Below, in pieces: positions 17,864 through 48,991 of a DNA stretch of 64,000 nt (its first letter is position 1; each line of letters begins with the position of its first letter). Position numbers and translations under genes: made by a program. The stretch is from a virus: the IMG/VR virus record IMGVR_UViG_3300045988_158900, one strand, 5' to 3'. The notes below the pieces were generated by a model that was not told the DNA's origin, did no database searches, and worked only from the letters and a program-made list of their open reading frames with translations.

Positions 17864-18074
17864 TTATTCATACTTAGGGGTCTTGGGCTTAACGAAATTT
17901 AGTTCAAAAATGTTAAAATGTCCGAAATTTCGTTTCCGCGTCTATGATAGTAAAAGCACGATAAATAAATTAACTATATCTCTTAGTCATGCCATAAAAT
18001 AAAATGATATGGTTTTATAGAGAGAAATTTTGGTCTGGAGAATCGGGAGAGCCAATAGACGCACAATTTAGTAT

Positions 18075-18271
18075 ACGGCCGTCGCCAAACAGGTAAGGCA
18101 CAGGACTTTCGAGAAATCGTTTAAATGGGTTATGTCATGTGATGGGTTAAGTAGCATGATGTAAGTTCTGTTAGTAGGACGCCAACCGGAATGATTGGTA
18201 GTATGAGTGCAAGTCTCATTTTCTCGCCCTGACTCCTGCATCTGCTGGTTCGAGTCCAGCCGGCCGTGCCA
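18075..18271 (+). tRNA. tRNA-Gln (UUG) interrupted in the anticodon loop by a 121-nt intron (18109-18229) that folds like a mini-tRNA
   Basis: Exon 1 ACGGCCG-TC-GCCAAACAGGTAAGGC-A-CAGGA-CTT has an E. coli tRNA-Gln-like D arm; exon 2 TGAC-TCCTG-CATCT-GCTGGTTCGAGTCCAGC-CGGCCGT-G-CCA; intron has acceptor-like CGAGAAA/TTTCTCG, T-arm-like ATGAGTGCAAGTCTCAT, then C-CC. Confidence 0.5.
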
Positions 18272-18398
18272 CCGGAGTTCTGCTAAATCATATATTTAAT
18301 TAAGAATTTGCTGCTCTGAACGAATATATGAGGATTTAAAAAATGGGTCTAGATGACGCAGATAACCCGCTCCGGACCAGAAATAAGTGAGGAAGAAT

Positions 18399-19183: not shown

Positions 19184-19254
19184 TCCGGCTTGGAGTAATG
19201 GTAGCCCGCCTGACTCTAAATCAGGTCGCCTCGGTTCGAATCCGAGAGCCGGTG
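19184..19254 (+). tRNA. tRNA with CUA anticodon (would read UAG as a sense codon)
   Basis: Anticodon arm CCTGA-CTCTAAA-TCAGG is a perfect 5-bp stem with a 7-nt loop (U33, CUA, A37); T arm CTCGGTTCGAATCCGAG. Confidence 0.6.
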
Positions 19255-19481
19255 CGGCATTAAGTAAGAAACCTCCTCGTGGTAATGCTGGTTAATACTA
19301 ATTCTTGCGTTAAGAAAATGAAGCAATATGTATATAAACCATTGATAAGTCTTCATTGAGACAGGATGTAGGATTCGAAGTGTCCATCATTTAAAGAGTA
19401 GTCTATAACCGCGGAATAGATTTTTGGTATAGACACACACTGTCAAGGTTCTCGATTTACCTTAAACAAAATCGAATATTT

Positions 19482-22963: not shown

Positions 22964-23433
22964 TTCCCTTTAATGGGACTATTCATATAATATTGAGAGC
23001 CGTGCAGCAAATTTTTATTAGAAAATTATTTCTACTAAAAAAGGATGATGCTATAATTAATAGCGCTACTTTACGGCTCATGAAGAGTTATCTAAGTGTA
23101 GATGCGATGATGGGGCTCTCGAAAATTACCATTGTCAATTTGAGAACGATAATGTTTAATGAGCCTTTTTTTACTTGCCTTCTTAGGAGGTCATAGCTAG
23201 TAGGAATGTGGCGATTATCGACAAAACATTCGAAAGCAATGAAGAACGGCAGGTTATTTATTGAATAGGTAAAGGCACAAACAGCAATTATTAGATGATT
23301 ATAATTAATGCTAGAAATTTTTAAATCAACGTGCCTTGGTTTTTTTCTTATGCATATTTCCAATTTTTTACCAGTTTTGGTAAATTTTTTCCATTAACAT
23401 GCTCCGTTAGCTCAGTGGTAGAGCAGTAGCCTT

Positions 23434-24170
23434 GGTGGAATCGTATAATGAAATACAATTCCGAACTCGGTCAAAATGGATTAATGAATTTAGTTAAGGT
23501 TTTAAATAACAGTGAAAGGAGCTGATTATTTATGGCTAAAACTAATTCAGAAAATGTATGTAATTTTGTAAAAAACAGAAAAACAAATTTAATTTCATTA
23601 TTTCATAATAAATGTTGTATTTGTGGATTTGATAAATTTCAAGAAGCATTAGAATTTCATCACGTTGACCCCTCTTAGAAAGAATTATCATTGTCTTCAA
23701 ATGTAATGGTATCATTAGAACGACAAATCAATGAAGCAAAAAAATGTATTCTTGTCTGTGCTAATTGTCATCGAGGAATTCATGCAGGATACTATAAAGT
23801 ACCAAACAATTATGAATCTTTATTTGATGAATAGCAGGCTCAATATTTATTAGAAAAAAATCAAGAAATTAAAGAAGGTAAAAAACATTATTGTAAATCT
23901 TGTGGTAAATTATTAAATAATAATTCAATTTATTGTTTAGAATGTAGTCATAAAATTTAGAGAGTGGCAGAACGTCCCACTCGACAAGAATTAAAGAATT
24001 TAATTCGTAATTAGCCATTTACTCAAATTGCTAAAAAATATAATGTTTCTGACAACGCTATTCGTAAATGGTGCATTTGTGAAAAATTACCTACTAAAAA
24101 AAGTTTTATTAATTCATTGACCGACGAACAATGGGAAGAGATATGAGTTCAAATCTCATTTCCACCTCCA
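23434..24170 (+). mobile_element. tRNA-like intron carrying an HNH homing endonuclease ORF
   Basis: Intron starts GGTGGAA-TC-GTAT..ATAC and ends ATGAGTTCAAATCTCAT-TTCCACC-T-CCA (acceptor, D and T arms of a tRNA, with an ORF in place of the anticodon arm); no terminal G, so not a typical group I intron. Confidence 0.45.
23532..24146 (+). CDS. HNH endonuclease (four in-frame TAGs)
   Basis: CCICGFDKFQ..EFHHVDP..N...CANCHRG HNH motif; RBS GAAAGGAG; TGA stop lies inside the intron's T-arm-like hairpin. Confidence 0.6.
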
Positions 24171-24413
24171 TTAAGCTATTGGTCCGGGGTTCAAGTCCCC
24201 GACGGGGCACCATAGGTGAATACGGCACCTAACCCCTTTTAATTTGGAAAATTTGAGACGACAATTCATATATCAACGTTGATAACGGTAAGAAGGTCTA
24301 TCAATCTTGAAAAAGATTAAGGGTTGTGCATATCTTCCCTGATTAGATATATGAAGTGGGGCAACGAGAGGCCCGCCCACTATAATATCGGGCCCTTCAC
24401 CATGGTAGGGAAC

Positions 24414-41234: not shown

Positions 41235-41490
41235 CCCTGTAAAAGTTCCGCTCGATTCAGCAATGGTCGAGCGGAACACTCGAAACGAATGTATTAATGA
41301 AATTCGTCCTCGTATTCCAGAAGCATTATGGAGTAGAATTTCAGAGGAATTAGTCCGCGACCAATGCCTAAGTTTATGGACTTGTTGCATTGAATGTATT
41401 AAGGAAATGGCTGAGGCTTGGGAAGAACAGAATGGTGAAAACCTTGTATGGGTGCCCGGCCACTATGAAGTCCAAAAGGAGAAAGATTGA
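41224..41490 (+). CDS. hypothetical protein
   Basis: ORF track. Confidence 0.45.
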   Translation: MKYDPVKVPLDSAMVERNTRNECINEIRPRIPEALWSRISEELVRDQCLSLWTCCIECIKEMAEAWEEQNGENLVWVPGHYEVQKEKD

Positions 41491-41732
41491 TGGAAAAGAA
41501 TATCACTCTGAGTGAAGATAAATTTAAGCATATTTATCGCGGTTATCTGAAATATTTGGCACTTCAAAATGGCGGCGTCGATAACTGGTCATGGTATGGA
41601 GATTCACTTGGTAATTTTTTGAAAGAGTGTTATTTAGAAAATCATCCTGGTAAAACTCTTGAAGACCTTTTTGATGAAGACTATGATTTTGACACAGTTG
41701 TTGATGAAGATTTAAAAAATGGAAATTTTTAA
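41487..41732 (+). CDS. hypothetical protein
   Basis: ORF track. Confidence 0.45.
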   Translation: MMEKNITLSEDKFKHIYRGYLKYLALQNGGVDNWSWYGDSLGNFLKECYLENHPGKTLEDLFDEDYDFDTVVDEDLKNGNF

Positions 41733-41734
41733 TT

Positions 41735-41917
41735 ATGATTAATTTACATTTTCATAAAGCAGAGCCTGTTCCATTCTATATCAATACAGTTTTTTCTCTC
41801 TATAAATGCAGCAAATGTGATAAAGTATTATTGGTAAACCGCTATACTGGATACCGCAAATGGCTATCAGAAGAAAAAGCATTATACCAGGCTTATAAAT
41901 CAGAAACAGGGCTATAA
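41735..41917 (+). CDS. hypothetical small protein
   Basis: ORF track. Confidence 0.4.
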   Translation: MINLHFHKAEPVPFYINTVFSLYKCSKCDKVLLVNRYTGYRKWLSEEKALYQAYKSETGL

Positions 41918-41988
41918 GCTCTGTTTTTGATTTTTTATAAAAAATATATTATAATATATATAGAAAGTTAAGAAAGGAATTGATAAAT

Positions 41989-42246
41989 ATGATGTTTATT
42001 ATTTCGATCCTGTTGGTTGGTGTGTTGTTTCTGGTGCCGTCTGCTGTATGCACCTGGCTTTGGGGATTGATTCTTGTACCTATGTTCAATATTGAGCCAA
42101 TCAGTTTTTGGAGTATATATGGTTTGATTTGGATGGTGCAGCTTATGACTGGCAGCTTCTTCGAAGACATTGCTCTGTCTAATTCCTATCTTAATAATGA
42201 ATTGTTTGATAATATTAAATTTAATTCGGAAGATGAGGATAAGTAA
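41989..42246 (+). CDS. small membrane protein
   Basis: ORF track; promoter copy upstream. Confidence 0.4.
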   Translation: MMFIISILLVGVLFLVPSAVCTWLWGLILVPMFNIEPISFWSIYGLIWMVQLMTGSFFEDIALSNSYLNNELFDNIKFNSEDEDK

Positions 42247-42500
42247 TGTTTGAAGAGCACGCATTTTATTGTATGAAGTGCGGCCATCGAGGTATTCCGT
42301 TGGCTCGACGCACAAGTCATCAACACGAACGTTTCCATCGTAAGAAATTGTATTGTCCTTATTGTAAGGAAGAAGTCAATCATATTGAATGCAAGAATGA
42401 GACTGACATTGAAGAATTTTTGAAAAATTTTAACGAAGGGGTGTATGCGAATGAAGTCGAAGACTCTGTGGCTCATTGCCGGAGTGCCTGGAAGTGGTAA
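42246..42500 (+). CDS. zinc-finger small protein
   Basis: CMKCGH...CPYC. Confidence 0.4.
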   Translation: MFEEHAFYCMKCGHRGIPLARRTSHQHERFHRKKLYCPYCKEEVNHIECKNETDIEEFLKNFNEGVYANEVEDSVAHCRSAWKW

Positions 42501-42950
42501 ATCCACTTTCCTCGCCAATCAGGTTAATAAACCTAATGCAAAAATTGTTTCTCGTGATGCCATTCGTTTTAAACTCCTTGGAGATGGAGACGCTTATTTC
42601 AAGAATGAAGATACTGTCTGGAATATGTATGTAGATGCTATCAAGAATAGCCTTCAGGAAAATGAGCATACTATTCTTGATGCCACTCATTTGAATGAAC
42701 GTTCTCGCAATAAAATTCTTGATCGTTTAAATTTAAATGACGTTAATATCAATGTCATTTATTTTAAAGTTCCTCTGAATGTGTGCATTGACCGGAATGC
42801 TCAGCGAACTGGCCGAGCCCATGTGCCGACTGATGTAATTACAAAAATGTATGCTTCTTACCGCTACCCCACCTTTAATGAAAAATACTATTATAATCGT
42901 ATCCTTGAGGTTGATGAAAATGGAAATATTAATGAATGGAGTGATAAGTA
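42451..42950 (+). CDS. P-loop polynucleotide kinase (Pnk-like 5'-kinase)
   Basis: Walker A GVPGSGKST; T4 Pnk-like size; RBS AAGGGG. Confidence 0.55.
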
Positions 42951-43706
42951 ATGGCGATTTTCGCTACGTCAGATATGCACTTCGGGCATGACCGGGAATT
43001 CATTTGGAAGGTTCGTGGATTTAAGTCCATCCAAGAGATGAATGATGAATACGTGAATCGTTGGAATAGCGTGGTTGGCCCTGAAGATGATGTTTATTGC
43101 CTGGGCGATTTAATGCTCGGCGACCCTTCTAATATTGAGTATATTAAGAAACTCAATGGTAAAATCCATATTGTATATGGTAATCATGATACTAATAATC
43201 GGCGTAAAATGTATGCTGAACTTCCTAATGTGGTAGAAGCATCATGGGCGATTATGTTAGATTATAAAAAATATCATTTTTTTATGACACATTTTCCTTG
43301 TATGACTGGTAATTTGGAGAAAGAAAGTTTGAAACAATGCACTTGTAATTTGTTTGGACATACCCATCAGACTACCAATTTCTATAATGATTTGCCATTT
43401 ATGTATCATGTTGGCGTTGATTCTCATGACGGATATCCTGTAAGTCTTGATATTATTATCGAGCAAATGAATGCCAAAGTAAGAGAATGTCGTTCTTACC
43501 TTGATGAAGAGGAAACAATTCCTGCTCCGGTAGAGCGCAAGACCCCTGATTTTCCCGCTCGTTTAACTCAAAAAGAAATGTTAGAGGAGCATAAAGCAAC
43601 TGTTCGTTGTGATAAATGCGTATATAGCGCATGGTTCTGTGGTCAAAATCCCACTGACTGCCATGAGTATCGTCGCGACCCGCCTGATGGTGGTTATTAT
43701 GGCTAA
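42951..43706 (+). CDS. calcineurin-like metallophosphoesterase (bacterial Pnkp-type phosphatase domain-like)
   Basis: DMHFGHD...GDLMLG...GNHD motifs; start abuts the kinase stop (TAAATG). Confidence 0.55.
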   Translation: MAIFATSDMHFGHDREFIWKVRGFKSIQEMNDEYVNRWNSVVGPEDDVYCLGDLMLGDPSNIEYIKKLNGKIHIVYGNHDTNNRRKMYAELPNVVEASWAIMLDYKKYHFFMTHFPCMTGNLEKESLKQCTCNLFGHTHQTTNFYNDLPFMYHVGVDSHDGYPVSLDIIIEQMNAKVRECRSYLDEEETIPAPVERKTPDFPARLTQKEMLEEHKATVRCDKCVYSAWFCGQNPTDCHEYRRDPPDGGYYG

Positions 43707-47737: not shown

Positions 47738-48991
47738 ATGATAAAAACAAGACAATTCTATGATACCTGTAGCCTGCTTCTGAGAGCGGGGAATTTGTTT
47801 GACGAACCAGAAGATTTTATTATTTCTTCAATTACATTACAAGAATTGGAAAATATAAAAACATCAACTAATAAAGATGATAATGTAAAATTTTCAGCTC
47901 GTCAACTTCTCCACGATTTAGATGAGCATTTTGGTCAATATTTAATTATTAATTACCAAAATACATATGCTCAAAATATAACACAAAGAGATTTTGAATT
48001 AACTAATGATACAAAAATTCTGAGCTGTTATTTGGAATGTGTGCGATTATTTCCAGAAGAAAAAATAGTATTTATTACTAATGACTTAGCCTTAAAAAGT
48101 ATCGCACGAGTATTTACTTCTAATATCCAATCATTAGAAGAAGATAAACCCGATGACTATACTGGATATAAAGAAATTACCATGTCTGATGACTGTATGG
48201 GTGATTTTTATACAAATCCAAGTGAAAATGAATGGAATCTTCAAATTGGTGAATATATCCTTGTTAAAAACACAGAAGGAGAAATTGTTGATCGTTTATG
48301 TTGGAATGGCGAATATTATCGACATTTAGATTATAAATCATTTAATTCACGATGGTTCGGCGAAGTCAAACCAATTAAAGGAGATGCTTATCAATAGCTT
48401 GCTTGCGATAGTTTAGTAAACAATAGAATTACTATGTTGAAAGGCCCAGCAGGAACAGGTAAGACTTATCTTGCTCTTGGATTTTTACTCCATATGCTTG
48501 ACCGTGGCCAAATTGATAAAGTTATTATTTTCTGTAATACTGTAGCAACTAAAAATTCTGCTAAATTAGGTTTTTATCCCGGCAGCCGAGATGAAAAACT
48601 TCTTGATTCTCAAATCGGCAATCTATTAATTAGTAAATTAGGAGATAGAATTGCTGTTGAAGAATTAATGAATCGTGAAAAATTAATTCTATTGCCTATG
48701 TCAGATATTAGAGGTTATGATACTACTGGTATGAATGCTGGTATTTATATCTCAGAAGCACAAAATCTTGATATTACTTTAATGAAATTAGCTTTACAGC
48801 GTATTGGTGAAGATAGCATTTGTATCATTGATGGCGATGCTTAGACTTAGGTTGATGACGTGCATTTTGCTGGCGCAAATAATGGTATGCGTCGAGCATC
48901 TAAGGTATTTAGAGGTAGCGATGTATATGGTGAAGTAGAGTTAAAAACAATTCATCGTAGTAAAATTGCAGAAATTGCTCAAAAAATGTAA
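47738..48991 (+). CDS. PIN-domain plus PhoH-like ATPase (PhoH2 type); three in-frame TAGs
   Basis: ORFs 47738..48397 and 48434..48844 share one frame joined by TAG; Walker A GPAGTGKT; PhoH motif DGDAQTQVDD with TAG at the conserved Gln. Confidence 0.6.

Follow-up and report, generated by a model that had tools for sequence, protein, structure and literature searches.

How can a phage obtain a lysine transfer RNA (tRNA) from a gene whose anticodon loop is split by 737 nucleotides (nt)? This question is raised by the tRNA-Lys(UUU) gene at 23401-24212 of the IMG/VR virus record IMGVR_UViG_3300045988_158900, of which the whole analysed stretch (64,000 nt) is referred to here as the window. The insert splits the gene between tRNA positions 34 and 35, is itself shaped like a tRNA and carries an HNH endonuclease gene. 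We regard it as practically certain that it is a real, conserved and mobile tRNA-shaped insert, and it is probably removed by a protein-dependent route that is guided by its tRNA shape. As for the full mechanism, we lean towards a mobile tRNA-in-tRNA intron that would be cut out by RNase P and a 3' tRNA endonuclease and sealed by a ligase. The interrupted gene is composed as follows.

23401..23433, plus strand: 5' exon of tRNA-Lys(UUU), from ARAGORN on the spliced sequence
23434..24170, plus strand: tRNA-shaped mobile insert, 737 nt, from presence/absence polymorphism among near-identical phages
23434..23440, plus strand: inner acceptor 5' strand GGTGGAA, pairing with 24160-24166 (7/7 Watson-Crick)
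23441-23442, plus strand: spacer TC after the inner acceptor 5' strand
23443..23456, plus strand: inner D-like arm GTAT-AATGAA-ATAC, stem 23443-46 / 23453-56
23457..23490, plus strand: 5' strands of the 'anticodon-arm' helices that close off the open reading frame (ORF), from complementarity
23532..24146, plus strand: HNH homing-endonuclease ORF, 204 amino acids, from translation, PHROG, Pfam and tblastn
24111..24137, plus strand: 3' strands of the ORF-closing helices (AATTCATT, TTGACCGA, GGAA), within the end of the ORF
24143..24159, plus strand: inner T arm ATGAG-TTCAAAT-CTCAT, its stem containing the ORF stop TGA (24144-24146)
24160..24170, plus strand: inner acceptor 3' strand TTCCACC (24160-66), discriminator T (24167) and CCA (24168-70)
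24171..24212, plus strand: 3' exon of tRNA-Lys(UUU), from ARAGORN and uninterrupted alleles

The 5' exon holds the acceptor, the D arm, the anticodon stem GTAGC and the loop bases C32, U33 and U34. The 3' exon continues with U35, U36, A37 and A38 and contains the anticodon stem GCTAT, the variable loop, the T arm, the acceptor, the discriminator A and an encoded CCA. When 23434-24170 was deleted, ARAGORN called a canonical 75-nt tRNA-Lys(ttt), which identifies the outer spliced gene as a canonical tRNA; with default settings, neither ARAGORN nor Rfam called a tRNA at 23401-24212. The boundaries of the insert are fixed by alleles that lack it. Six IMG/VR contigs have the sequence ...GAGCAGTAGCCTT|TTAAGCTATTGGTC... 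without interruption, and the flanking context is shared by at least three of these contigs. The insert-free contigs include the closest relatives of the phage (RNA ligase 94-98% identical). L116, L117 and L121 have an uninterrupted gene whose 5' part matches the 5' exon of the window in every base (L-numbers label the related phage loci or contigs that were compared with the window). Because the first base of the insert is G, its last base is A and both of its neighbours are Ts, its boundaries are unique and without target duplication. The inserted DNA corresponds exactly to the inner tRNA shape, from +1 to the CCA, and the final base of the CCA directly abuts the 3' exon. The intron mode of ARAGORN shifted the intron by 1 nt and read a tRNA-Thr(tgt); this reading was rejected because the six related contigs hold the uninterrupted sequence.

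A preliminary description of this locus had reported an insert that starts with GGTGGAA-TC-GTAT/ATAC and ends with a T arm followed by TTCCACC-T-CCA, with an HNH ORF containing in-frame TAGs in the place of the anticodon arm. The ends are exactly as described, and the ORF is indeed there, with 204 amino acids, four TAGs and a PHROG HNH match. The inner D-like arm lacks G18G19. The 5' strands that follow it are TTCC (23459-62), the conserved GAAC (23463-66), TCGGTCAA (23467-74) and AATGAATT (23483-90); TTCC pairs with GGAA (24134-37), TCGGTCAA with TTGACCGA (24117-24) and AATGAATT with AATTCATT (24111-18). Homologous counterparts of these stems in L123, L009 and L136 differ in sequence, and the ORF-less copy in L003 retains the 3' segments and folds with them. 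In its predicted fold, the whole insert RNA is a tRNA with an expanded anticodon arm, in which long-range helices close off the ORF.

The insert possesses acceptor, D and T arms and no anticodon stem-loop, and is not a canonical tRNA. The tRNA and relaxed modes of ARAGORN called no genuine nested tRNA in the window, L003, L016, L024b or L012, and this candidate was dropped. The same applies to transfer-messenger RNA (tmRNA): the tmRNA mode of ARAGORN was negative and the sole Rfam signal reached 10.5 bits against a gathering threshold of 47. The weak tmRNA and mascRNA-like Rfam matches cover the T arm and the acceptor. The inner pair 3-70 is U-A and varies across the family, with no G3-U70 and no tmRNA pseudoknots.

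We searched for relatives with the HNH protein alignment (A1) in viral, metagenome and genome collections, and identified nested elements by a junction-anchored scan starting from the HNH match. Unanchored stem-pairing scans gave mostly chance matches and were not used. About 20 distinct, diverged nested elements were found in unrelated gut and rumen phages, in the following tRNA genes.

tRNA-Lys(UUU): window, L003, L008, L009, L011, L012, L122, L123, L130, L179
tRNA-Asn(GUU): L015, L018, L020, L024, L027, L136, L141, L150, L154
tRNA-Ile(GAU): L138
tRNA-Thr(UGU): L024, ~4523-4609, ORF-less copy, 87 nt
tRNA-Gln(UUG): window, 18110-18230, ORF-less, 121 nt
tRNA-Lys: L012 (listed above), 2330-2373, ORF-less copy, 44 nt
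Odd-loop tRNA (Asp or Val reading, U37): L016, 1937-2006, ORF-less copy, 70 nt
tRNA-Lys: L003 (listed above), 2961-3072, ORF-less copy, 112 nt

The search of related phages for the same insert in tRNA-Lys, which had been proposed at the outset, thus returned all the loci in the first line besides the window. The ORF-less copies range from 44 to 121 nt. The 70-nt copy in L016 folds as a complete mini-cloverleaf (z = -2.4), and the 44-nt copy in L012 is an acceptor/T-arm minihelix alone (z = -2.75). Both of these split tRNAs have a free-standing HNH homolog as an immediate neighbour. Relatives binned into metagenome-assembled genomes point to hosts among gut and rumen Clostridia and related groups.

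The tRNA shape is kept by compensatory change. In a register-fixed alignment of 21 elements (A3), the cells of the acceptor, D and T stems contain 97.9% standard pairs compared with 71.5% in shuffles, a figure that is somewhat inflated for the acceptor and T stems, which were partly used as criteria for selecting members. The D arm, which played no role in choosing the members, is 100% paired, and three of its four pairs covary. Both sides change in 13 of the 16 pairs, and all seven pairs of the inner acceptor show such two-sided changes. The covariation score was 0.79, compared with 0.25 in shuffles (0/500 reached 0.79) and 0.08-0.16 in slid controls. The middle pair of the T stem covaries between G-C and A-U, along with TGA and TAA stops. 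Since G-U pairs are frequent on the sense strand, the structure resides in the sense-strand RNA. Outside the helices, the sequence is poorly conserved among the members.

Next, we compared the element with its surroundings. The sister phage L003 has, at the same site, the 112-nt version from which the ORF is deleted. L122 has a copy with 91.5% identity across the full 737 nt, located in a different tRNA-Lys on an unrelated metagenomic contig: the host tRNA-Lys exons are 76-84% identical, the 200-nt flanks are unrelated, and perfect exon identity extends over only ~13 nt on each side of the junction. The L018/L020 and L027/L150 pairs show the same pattern. Judged from these alignments, this looks like the signature of a mobile element that would spread by homing, with exon co-conversion or target-site selection. 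A DNA similarity search with the window found no similar DNA among deposited phage genomes.

Such an element could be purely selfish. It would then inactivate a dispensable tRNA, its tRNA shape would serve only to release or stabilise the HNH mRNA through RNase P and RNase Z, and the tRNA halves would never be rejoined. The mobility of the element, the stronger conservation of the insert than of the exons between the window and L122, and the co-conversion-like identity at the junctions all fit this explanation. In addition, many homologs are free-standing genes abutting tRNAs, and phage tRNAs are usually non-essential. The interrupted tRNAs themselves bear on this explanation, and the window contains a second split gene.

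18075..18271, plus strand: split tRNA-Gln(UUG), exons 18075-18109 and 18231-18271, from ARAGORN intron mode and our own scan
18110..18230, plus strand: tRNA-Gln insert, 121 nt, ORF-less, after position 35

The Rfam tRNA model spans the split tRNA-Gln with 43.1 bits; the gene was missed by default ARAGORN and by Rfam at the gathering threshold. Its insert (CGAGAAA ... ATGAG-TGCAAGT-CTCAT-TTTCTCG-C-CCT) has the acceptor CGAGAAA/TTTCTCG, three internal hairpins and the T arm ATGAG/CTCAT. The insert is also present in L118 and L159, where it is conserved and the changes in its acceptor and T stems are fully compensatory. Between the window and the distant syntenic L159, the tRNA-Gln exons are identical at 72/76 positions (94.7%) and the insert at 85/123 (69%), and the outer acceptor has undergone a compensatory change from C5-G68 to U5-A68. 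As judged from these substitutions, purifying selection acts on the interrupted tRNA-Gln. Since the interrupted tRNA-Gln is more constrained than its insert, it should still yield a functional product, and the insert would therefore have to be removed at the RNA level. The tRNA array contains 27 intact tRNA genes, which cover 18 amino acids and a suppressor. Only Lys and Gln have no intact tRNA, and these are exactly the two split genes. Rfam also calls a tRNA at 10300-10369 (35.8 bits) that is absent from the ARAGORN list and lies directly downstream of tRNA-Met (10218-10293).

The junctions follow a common rule. With the boundaries taken from the inner acceptor, excision in silico restores a 7-nt anticodon loop with U33 in 21/21 tabulated copies. 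The restored loops have a purine at position 37 in 20/21 (the L016 copy has U37) and read Lys, Asn, Ile, Thr or Gln. The insertion lies at 34/35 in the window, L009 and L011, at 35/36 in L008, L123 and all Asn copies, and at 36/37 in L130 and L179. A DNA insertion free of constraint at the RNA level would give no reason to expect an exact 7-nt loop at three loop positions. ORF-less copies of 44-121 nt also persist, and these have no mRNA to release. Together with the tRNA-Gln exons, which have changed far less than their insert and contain a compensatory substitution in the acceptor, and with Lys and Gln as the sole amino acids without an intact tRNA in the array, this makes it unlikely that tRNA-Lys is simply inactivated, an alternative that the preliminary description had raised.

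The 3' boundary follows a second rule. Inserts ending in N-CCA sit in tRNAs with an encoded CCA in 12/15 cases, and inserts ending at the discriminator sit in CCA-less tRNAs in 6/6 cases, where 0/25 neighbouring tRNAs encode CCA (one-sided Fisher p ~0.0015, ignoring relatedness). The CCA-ended and discriminator-ended elements are homologous (HNH proteins 45-86% identical), so the tail has adapted to the tRNA 3'-end style of the host phage. This adaptation is as would be expected if the tRNA 3'-end machinery makes the 3' junction. At the 5' junction, base -1 is U in 20/21 elements and base +1 is G in 18/21; bacterial RNase P prefers U at -1 and G at +1. An acceptor/T-arm minihelix is the minimal substrate for RNase P and RNase Z, and in form the elements provide such a substrate: a 7-bp acceptor and a 5-bp T stem (12 bp), both covarying, with a 3' discriminator with or without CCA.

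Since the insert carries an endonuclease gene and interrupts an anticodon loop, we also considered known introns. The preliminary description had argued, from the missing terminal G, that the insert does not look like a self-splicing group I intron, and this holds. The insert ends in ...CCUCCA without the terminal G (omega-G), with boundaries that are fixed by the uninterrupted alleles, and the CCA-less relatives end at a discriminator C or T and never at a conserved G. Rfam, searched both at gathering thresholds and at E<=10, gave no group I or group II intron, small ribozyme or riboswitch in 23300-24300, 18050-18290 or L003, so that no group I core elements were found in the window insert or in the ORF-less L003 copy. 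The searches at E<=10 used the 'evalue' mode of Rfam 15. A run at the gathering threshold also missed presumed group I controls, and one control was therefore searched in the 'evalue' mode: the tRNA-Asn group I intron of L032, which scored 89.1 bits (E=1.4e-23).

A self-splicing or self-cleaving ribozyme of an unrecognised class could be proposed instead, with the tRNA likeness being incidental or a scaffold. The conserved unpaired YGAACU after the D arm of the HNH-bearing copies and the conserved blocks AAATGGGTTAT and GGGTTAAGTAG in the tRNA-Gln element could be read in this way, and to our knowledge the bacterial and phage tRNA introns described so far are all self-splicing ribozymes. The same YGAACU precedes free-standing HNH genes, which assigns it to the gene and not to a splicing core, and the poor conservation of the non-helix sequence in the family does not suit a ribozyme either. 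Moreover, the 44- and 70-nt copies are too small for a self-splicing core because they consist only of a minihelix or a mini-cloverleaf, the L012 copy having nothing but its acceptor and T arm. With no terminal G and no ribozyme match in a search whose control works, we consider a ribozyme very improbable.

The motif itself reads YGAACU...GGnCAAA and lies upstream of the HNH ORF (23462-23476 in the window). It also occurs in the 5' untranslated regions of the HNH homologs of L012, L013, L021 and L322, which include nested and free-standing copies. Because it also precedes the free-standing genes, we assign the motif to the gene cassette rather than to the tRNA shape; roles as a promoter or as a site of regulation or processing are conceivable.

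In L032 (1889-2084), and likewise in L052, L067 and L017, ordinary group I introns occupy the CTGT|TAA site of tRNA-Asn that nested elements also use, in phages that have related HNH genes close by. This one tRNA site is thus shared by two different types of intron.

If proteins remove the insert, the exons have to be joined, and the window encodes candidate enzymes.

39864..41234, plus strand: ATP-dependent RNA ligase, DRB0094/Rnl-type (PHROG RNA ligase E=4.4e-62)
42445-42951, plus strand: polynucleotide kinase (AAA_33 E=1.2e-22; PHROG polynucleotide kinase 6.3e-28)
42951-43706, plus strand: metallophosphoesterase (Metallophos_2 2e-9; PHROG phosphoesterase 1.9e-44)

The ligase matches the Pfam family RNA_ligase (PF09414, E=1.5e-5) and, with its N-terminus, TIGR02306 (E=1e-9). 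The kinase matches the bacterial Pnkp kinase domain (E=8.6e-14), and by these domain matches the kinase and the phosphoesterase are predicted to be an RNA end-healing pair. The region 39864-43706 thereby has the appearance of an RNA-repair cassette of ligase, kinase and phosphoesterase. Ligases of this family also occur in the insert-bearing contigs of L003, L009/L027 and L010, among the matches listed; the single-protein scan behind this reaches close relatives only, and a degenerate-motif scan adds at least two insert-bearing contigs.

The presence of the kinase and the phosphoesterase next to the ligase raises another explanation, since neither would be needed for the products of RNase P and RNase Z. 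A dedicated nuclease that recognises the nested junction, either encoded by the phage or a host enzyme resembling an anticodon nuclease, could make the cuts and leave 2',3'-cyclic phosphate and 5'-OH ends, which the kinase and the phosphoesterase would heal and the ligase would seal, as in the repair by T4 Pnkp/Rnl1 or when archaea and eukaryotes splice their tRNAs. The N-CCU tail of the tRNA-Gln insert and the exonucleolytic 3' maturation of bacterial tRNAs, which are both discussed below, would also argue against a strictly canonical 3' pathway. The full tRNA mimicry of the insert (7-bp acceptor, T arm, -1 U, +1 G and a CCA-matched tail) is most simply explained by the canonical enzymes. We found no bulge-helix-bulge motif at the junctions, which were read from the sequence and have no 4-bp central helix: the 5' junction has 3-5 single-stranded nt between the outer anticodon stem (5 bp) and the inner acceptor (7 bp), and the 3' junction has a 1- or 4-nt tail plus 2-4 nt. 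Taken together, a dedicated nuclease seems rather unlikely, also because cassettes of kinase, phosphoesterase and ligase are common in phages as repair against anticodon nucleases (PMC7824862).

The mechanism that we favour combines tRNA end-processing with ligation. After transcription of the tRNA array, RNase P would cut 5' of G23434, so that the 5' exon would end in U34-3'OH, and a 3' tRNA endonuclease would cut after A24170 and leave a 5'-phosphate on U35. The 3' enzyme would be RNase Z-like; its cut would fall after position 76 in phages that encode CCA in their tRNA genes, and after the discriminator in those that do not. The tRNA-Lys halves would be held together by the outer acceptor and anticodon stems, and the ligase encoded at 39864-41234 would seal the 3'-OH/5'-phosphate nick in the anticodon loop. 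T4 Rnl1 repairs the same nick geometry in tRNA-Lys. The predicted spliced junctions are GAGCAGUAGCCUU|UUAAGCUAUUGG for Lys and GGCACAGGACUUU|GACUCCUGC for Gln. The released RNA with its tRNA-like ends would be the HNH mRNA, and the HNH enzyme would spread the element at the DNA level by cutting the uninterrupted tRNA-Lys and tRNA-Asn genes of co-infecting phages.

Excision by tRNA-end-processing enzymes followed by ligation had been put forward in the preliminary description as a testable alternative to self-splicing, and the comparative part of it has gained support. In the tabulated copies, whose inserts occupy three loop positions, the DNA boundaries coincide with mature tRNA ends; the 3' boundary tracks CCA encoding in the phage's own tRNA genes; and an RNA ligase, a polynucleotide kinase and a phosphoesterase are encoded by the phage. 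We infer which nucleases cut, that the ligase seals and that the HNH enzyme targets the tRNA gene.

Several observations weigh against this mechanism. Three loci fit the loop rule poorly: the restored loop of L016 has U37, L019 has outer anticodon-stem halves that fail to pair, and the loop of L148 has 8 nt if the 3' tail is not taken as 2 nt. The CCA rule has its exceptions in L016, L138 and L179. The ligase family is also common in relatives without the insert, so the ligase is permissive and not insert-specific. The tRNA-Gln insert has an N-CCT (N-CCU in the RNA) instead of an N-CCA tail in all three copies. The tails at 18227-18230 and the homologous positions of L118 and L159 are CCCT, TCCT and CCCT and have the length of N-CCA, which suggests that the position of the 3' cut may be measured from the acceptor helix instead of depending on the CCA sequence. 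In model bacteria, exonucleases account for most of the 3' trimming of pre-tRNAs with an encoded CCA, and RNase Z is inhibited by CCA. An exonuclease route would destroy the 3' exon, and an endonuclease cutting right after position 76 is therefore needed. The RNase Z of Thermotoga maritima cuts right after position 76.

A case of destructive insertion comes from a cultured phage, and it too counts against tRNA-preserving removal. In the Bacillus subtilis phage SDFMU_Pbc (L322, OQ884030.1 ~36985-37705), a 33%-identical HNH homolog, annotated in the record merely as a hypothetical protein, lies inside tRNA-Asn(GTT), and its cassette replaces 5 nt of the anticodon arm. The tRNA-Asn gene is intact in the relatives Bp8p-C and phiAGATE (L351, L352). 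The 5 nt replaced in SDFMU_Pbc are GACTG, and the cassette contains a partial copy, CTTGA-TTAA, which means that the tRNA cannot be restored by simple excision. Judged from its sequence, the cassette probably kills the tRNA-Asn gene. We had considered it as a stand-alone tRNA-shaped HNH cassette and rejected it as a clean nested member, as it disrupts the tRNA-Asn gene of that phage with the loss of 5 nt. This disruption means that the HNH lineage can also insert destructively and spread without preserving the tRNA, which fits the inactivation of the split genes.

A more far-reaching proposal is that the elements constitute a third, enzyme-dependent class of bacterial and phage introns that also transposes at the RNA level. 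The excised RNA, with its 5'-phosphate and CCA-3'OH, would occasionally be ligated by the repair ligase into a nuclease-broken anticodon loop and then be fixed in the DNA by reverse transcription and recombination. We consider this quite improbable. If true, it would explain why the DNA boundaries equal mature RNA ends and why three loop positions and five tRNA species are used, and the maturation of the phage's only tRNA-Lys and tRNA-Gln would depend on its own ligase.

Returning to tRNA-shape-guided excision and ligation, we compared the insert with the known systems that resemble it most. The group I introns of tRNA anticodon loops (those of cyanobacterial tRNA-Leu(UAA) and tRNA-fMet and of phage tRNA-Asn in L032, L052 and L067) have the same location in the loop, and they share presence/absence polymorphism, a looped-out endonuclease gene and an intact tRNA after removal; the phage tRNA-Asn introns even share the CTGT|TAA site with the nested tRNA-Asn elements. 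Unlike them, the insert has no P1-P9 core, terminal G or Rfam signal, its ends are an acceptor and a discriminator or CCA, functional-looking nested copies go down to 44 nt, and its removal is expected to need proteins. The splicing of tRNAs by proteins is considered a trait of archaea and eukaryotes. With the introns of these organisms, whose exons are joined by RtcB or Trl1, the proposed mechanism shares a near-anticodon intron, cutting by proteins, a ligase and a tRNA body that holds the exons. It differs in that there is no bulge-helix-bulge and the recognition element is a whole nested tRNA mimic, in that RNase P and RNase Z cuts with 3'-OH/5'-phosphate ends are predicted instead of a splicing endonuclease with cyclic-phosphate ends, and in that the insert belongs to a bacterial virus and is mobile with an HNH gene.

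The repair of PrrC-nicked tRNA-Lys by T4 Pnkp/Rnl1 shares with the proposed mechanism the geometry of a break beside the wobble base of the anticodon loop, and the window encodes the same trio of ligase, kinase and phosphoesterase. In the window, however, the break would be programmed by the gene architecture and not by host defence, and the ligase is of the DRB0094/PF09414 type and not Rnl1. In the MALAT1 mascRNA and MEN-beta RNAs, in mitochondrial 'tRNA punctuation' and in tmRNA, RNA ends are defined by RNase P and RNase Z, which a tRNA mimic attracts, and tmRNA combines, like the insert, a tRNA-like acceptor/T-arm domain with an internal ORF. These RNAs release flanking RNAs or act in trans-translation, and unlike the insert none is nested in a way that requires exon ligation. 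The homing endonucleases of the T5 and T4 tRNA clusters (HNH, GIY-YIG, Seg; F-Tfl, SegB) are embedded in the arrays and are thought to target the tRNA genes of competitors, but they are intergenic, interrupt no tRNA and have no tRNA-shaped frame.

None of the closest systems combines the site, the mobility, the ligation chemistry and a tRNA mimic as processing signal. The literature that we searched holds no description of tRNA-shaped introns or of splicing by RNase P/Z plus ligase in bacteria or phages; publications beyond it may exist. If the proposed mechanism is true, it represents a new intron class and a new route to enzymatic tRNA splicing that borrows the universal tRNA end-trimming enzymes, and it gives phage RNA ligases a physiological role other than repair. 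It would also explain tRNA genes that standard annotation overlooks, here the phage's only tRNA-Lys and tRNA-Gln, and offer a natural design for the release of an mRNA from within a tRNA.

The ORF inside the insert starts with AUG, and a Shine-Dalgarno sequence, AAAGGAG, lies 10 nt upstream (23515-23521). Its product matches PHROG HNH endonuclease families (E=5.9e-22 and 3.5e-19), and its Pfam HNH match (E=5e-4, 20.5 bits) falls just under the gathering cut-off of 21.4; tblastn gave matches to annotated phage HNH endonucleases. We recognised an HNH domain, a zinc ribbon and a conserved C-terminal helix-turn-helix-like segment, and the residues CxxC...HH...N...CxxCH are invariant in the HNH protein alignment. 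With a nuclease motif with Cys pairs and a DNA-binding module, the predicted protein has the make-up of an HNH homing endonuclease. Its four in-frame TAG codons are read as sense and its TGA stop lies inside the T stem. The TAGs are explained by a suppressor tRNA that is encoded in the window.

19184-19255, plus strand: suppressor tRNA(CUA) reading TAG (ARAGORN 'tRNA-Pyl (cta)')

TAG codons are frequent in the long ORFs of the window, with up to 12 in frame (e.g. 2166-5114), and by its codon usage the window is assigned to a TAG-recoded phage. TAG is rare or absent in many genes at 30-46 kb and frequent in others, an uneven use that suggests stage-specific recoding. One may speculate that the stop in the T stem and the four TAGs make translation and folding mutually exclusive, with translation awaiting the suppressor tRNA.

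Many HNH homologs are free-standing and adjoin tRNAs (L125, L140, L186, L187 and others). Their stop codon lies ~10-15 nt upstream of an intact tRNA-Lys(TTT) or tRNA-Asn(GTT), and their 3' ends (AATTTAATCTCAT) resemble a deleted version of the T arm of the nested elements. A different arrangement was seen in L017 (2286-3132) and L021 (2338-3152), where tRNA-like halves enclose a complete tRNA-Ile and an HNH homolog. The tRNA-Ile(GAT) of L017, which is a bona fide tRNA, begins exactly at the break in the anticodon loop of the outer tRNA. This may be another nesting mode or a disrupted gene.

Elsewhere in the window, we noted an ATP-dependent DNA ligase (57822-59033), a protein with a GIY-YIG endonuclease domain (59685-60653) and a PIN-PhoH protein (47738-48991). 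In related loci, the neighbours of the tRNA arrays include a ROOL RNA (285 bits; L011, 4758-5361), a RAGATH-33 RNA (135 bits; L024, 1245-1356) and a phage tmRNA (61.5 bits; L017, 1993-2276).

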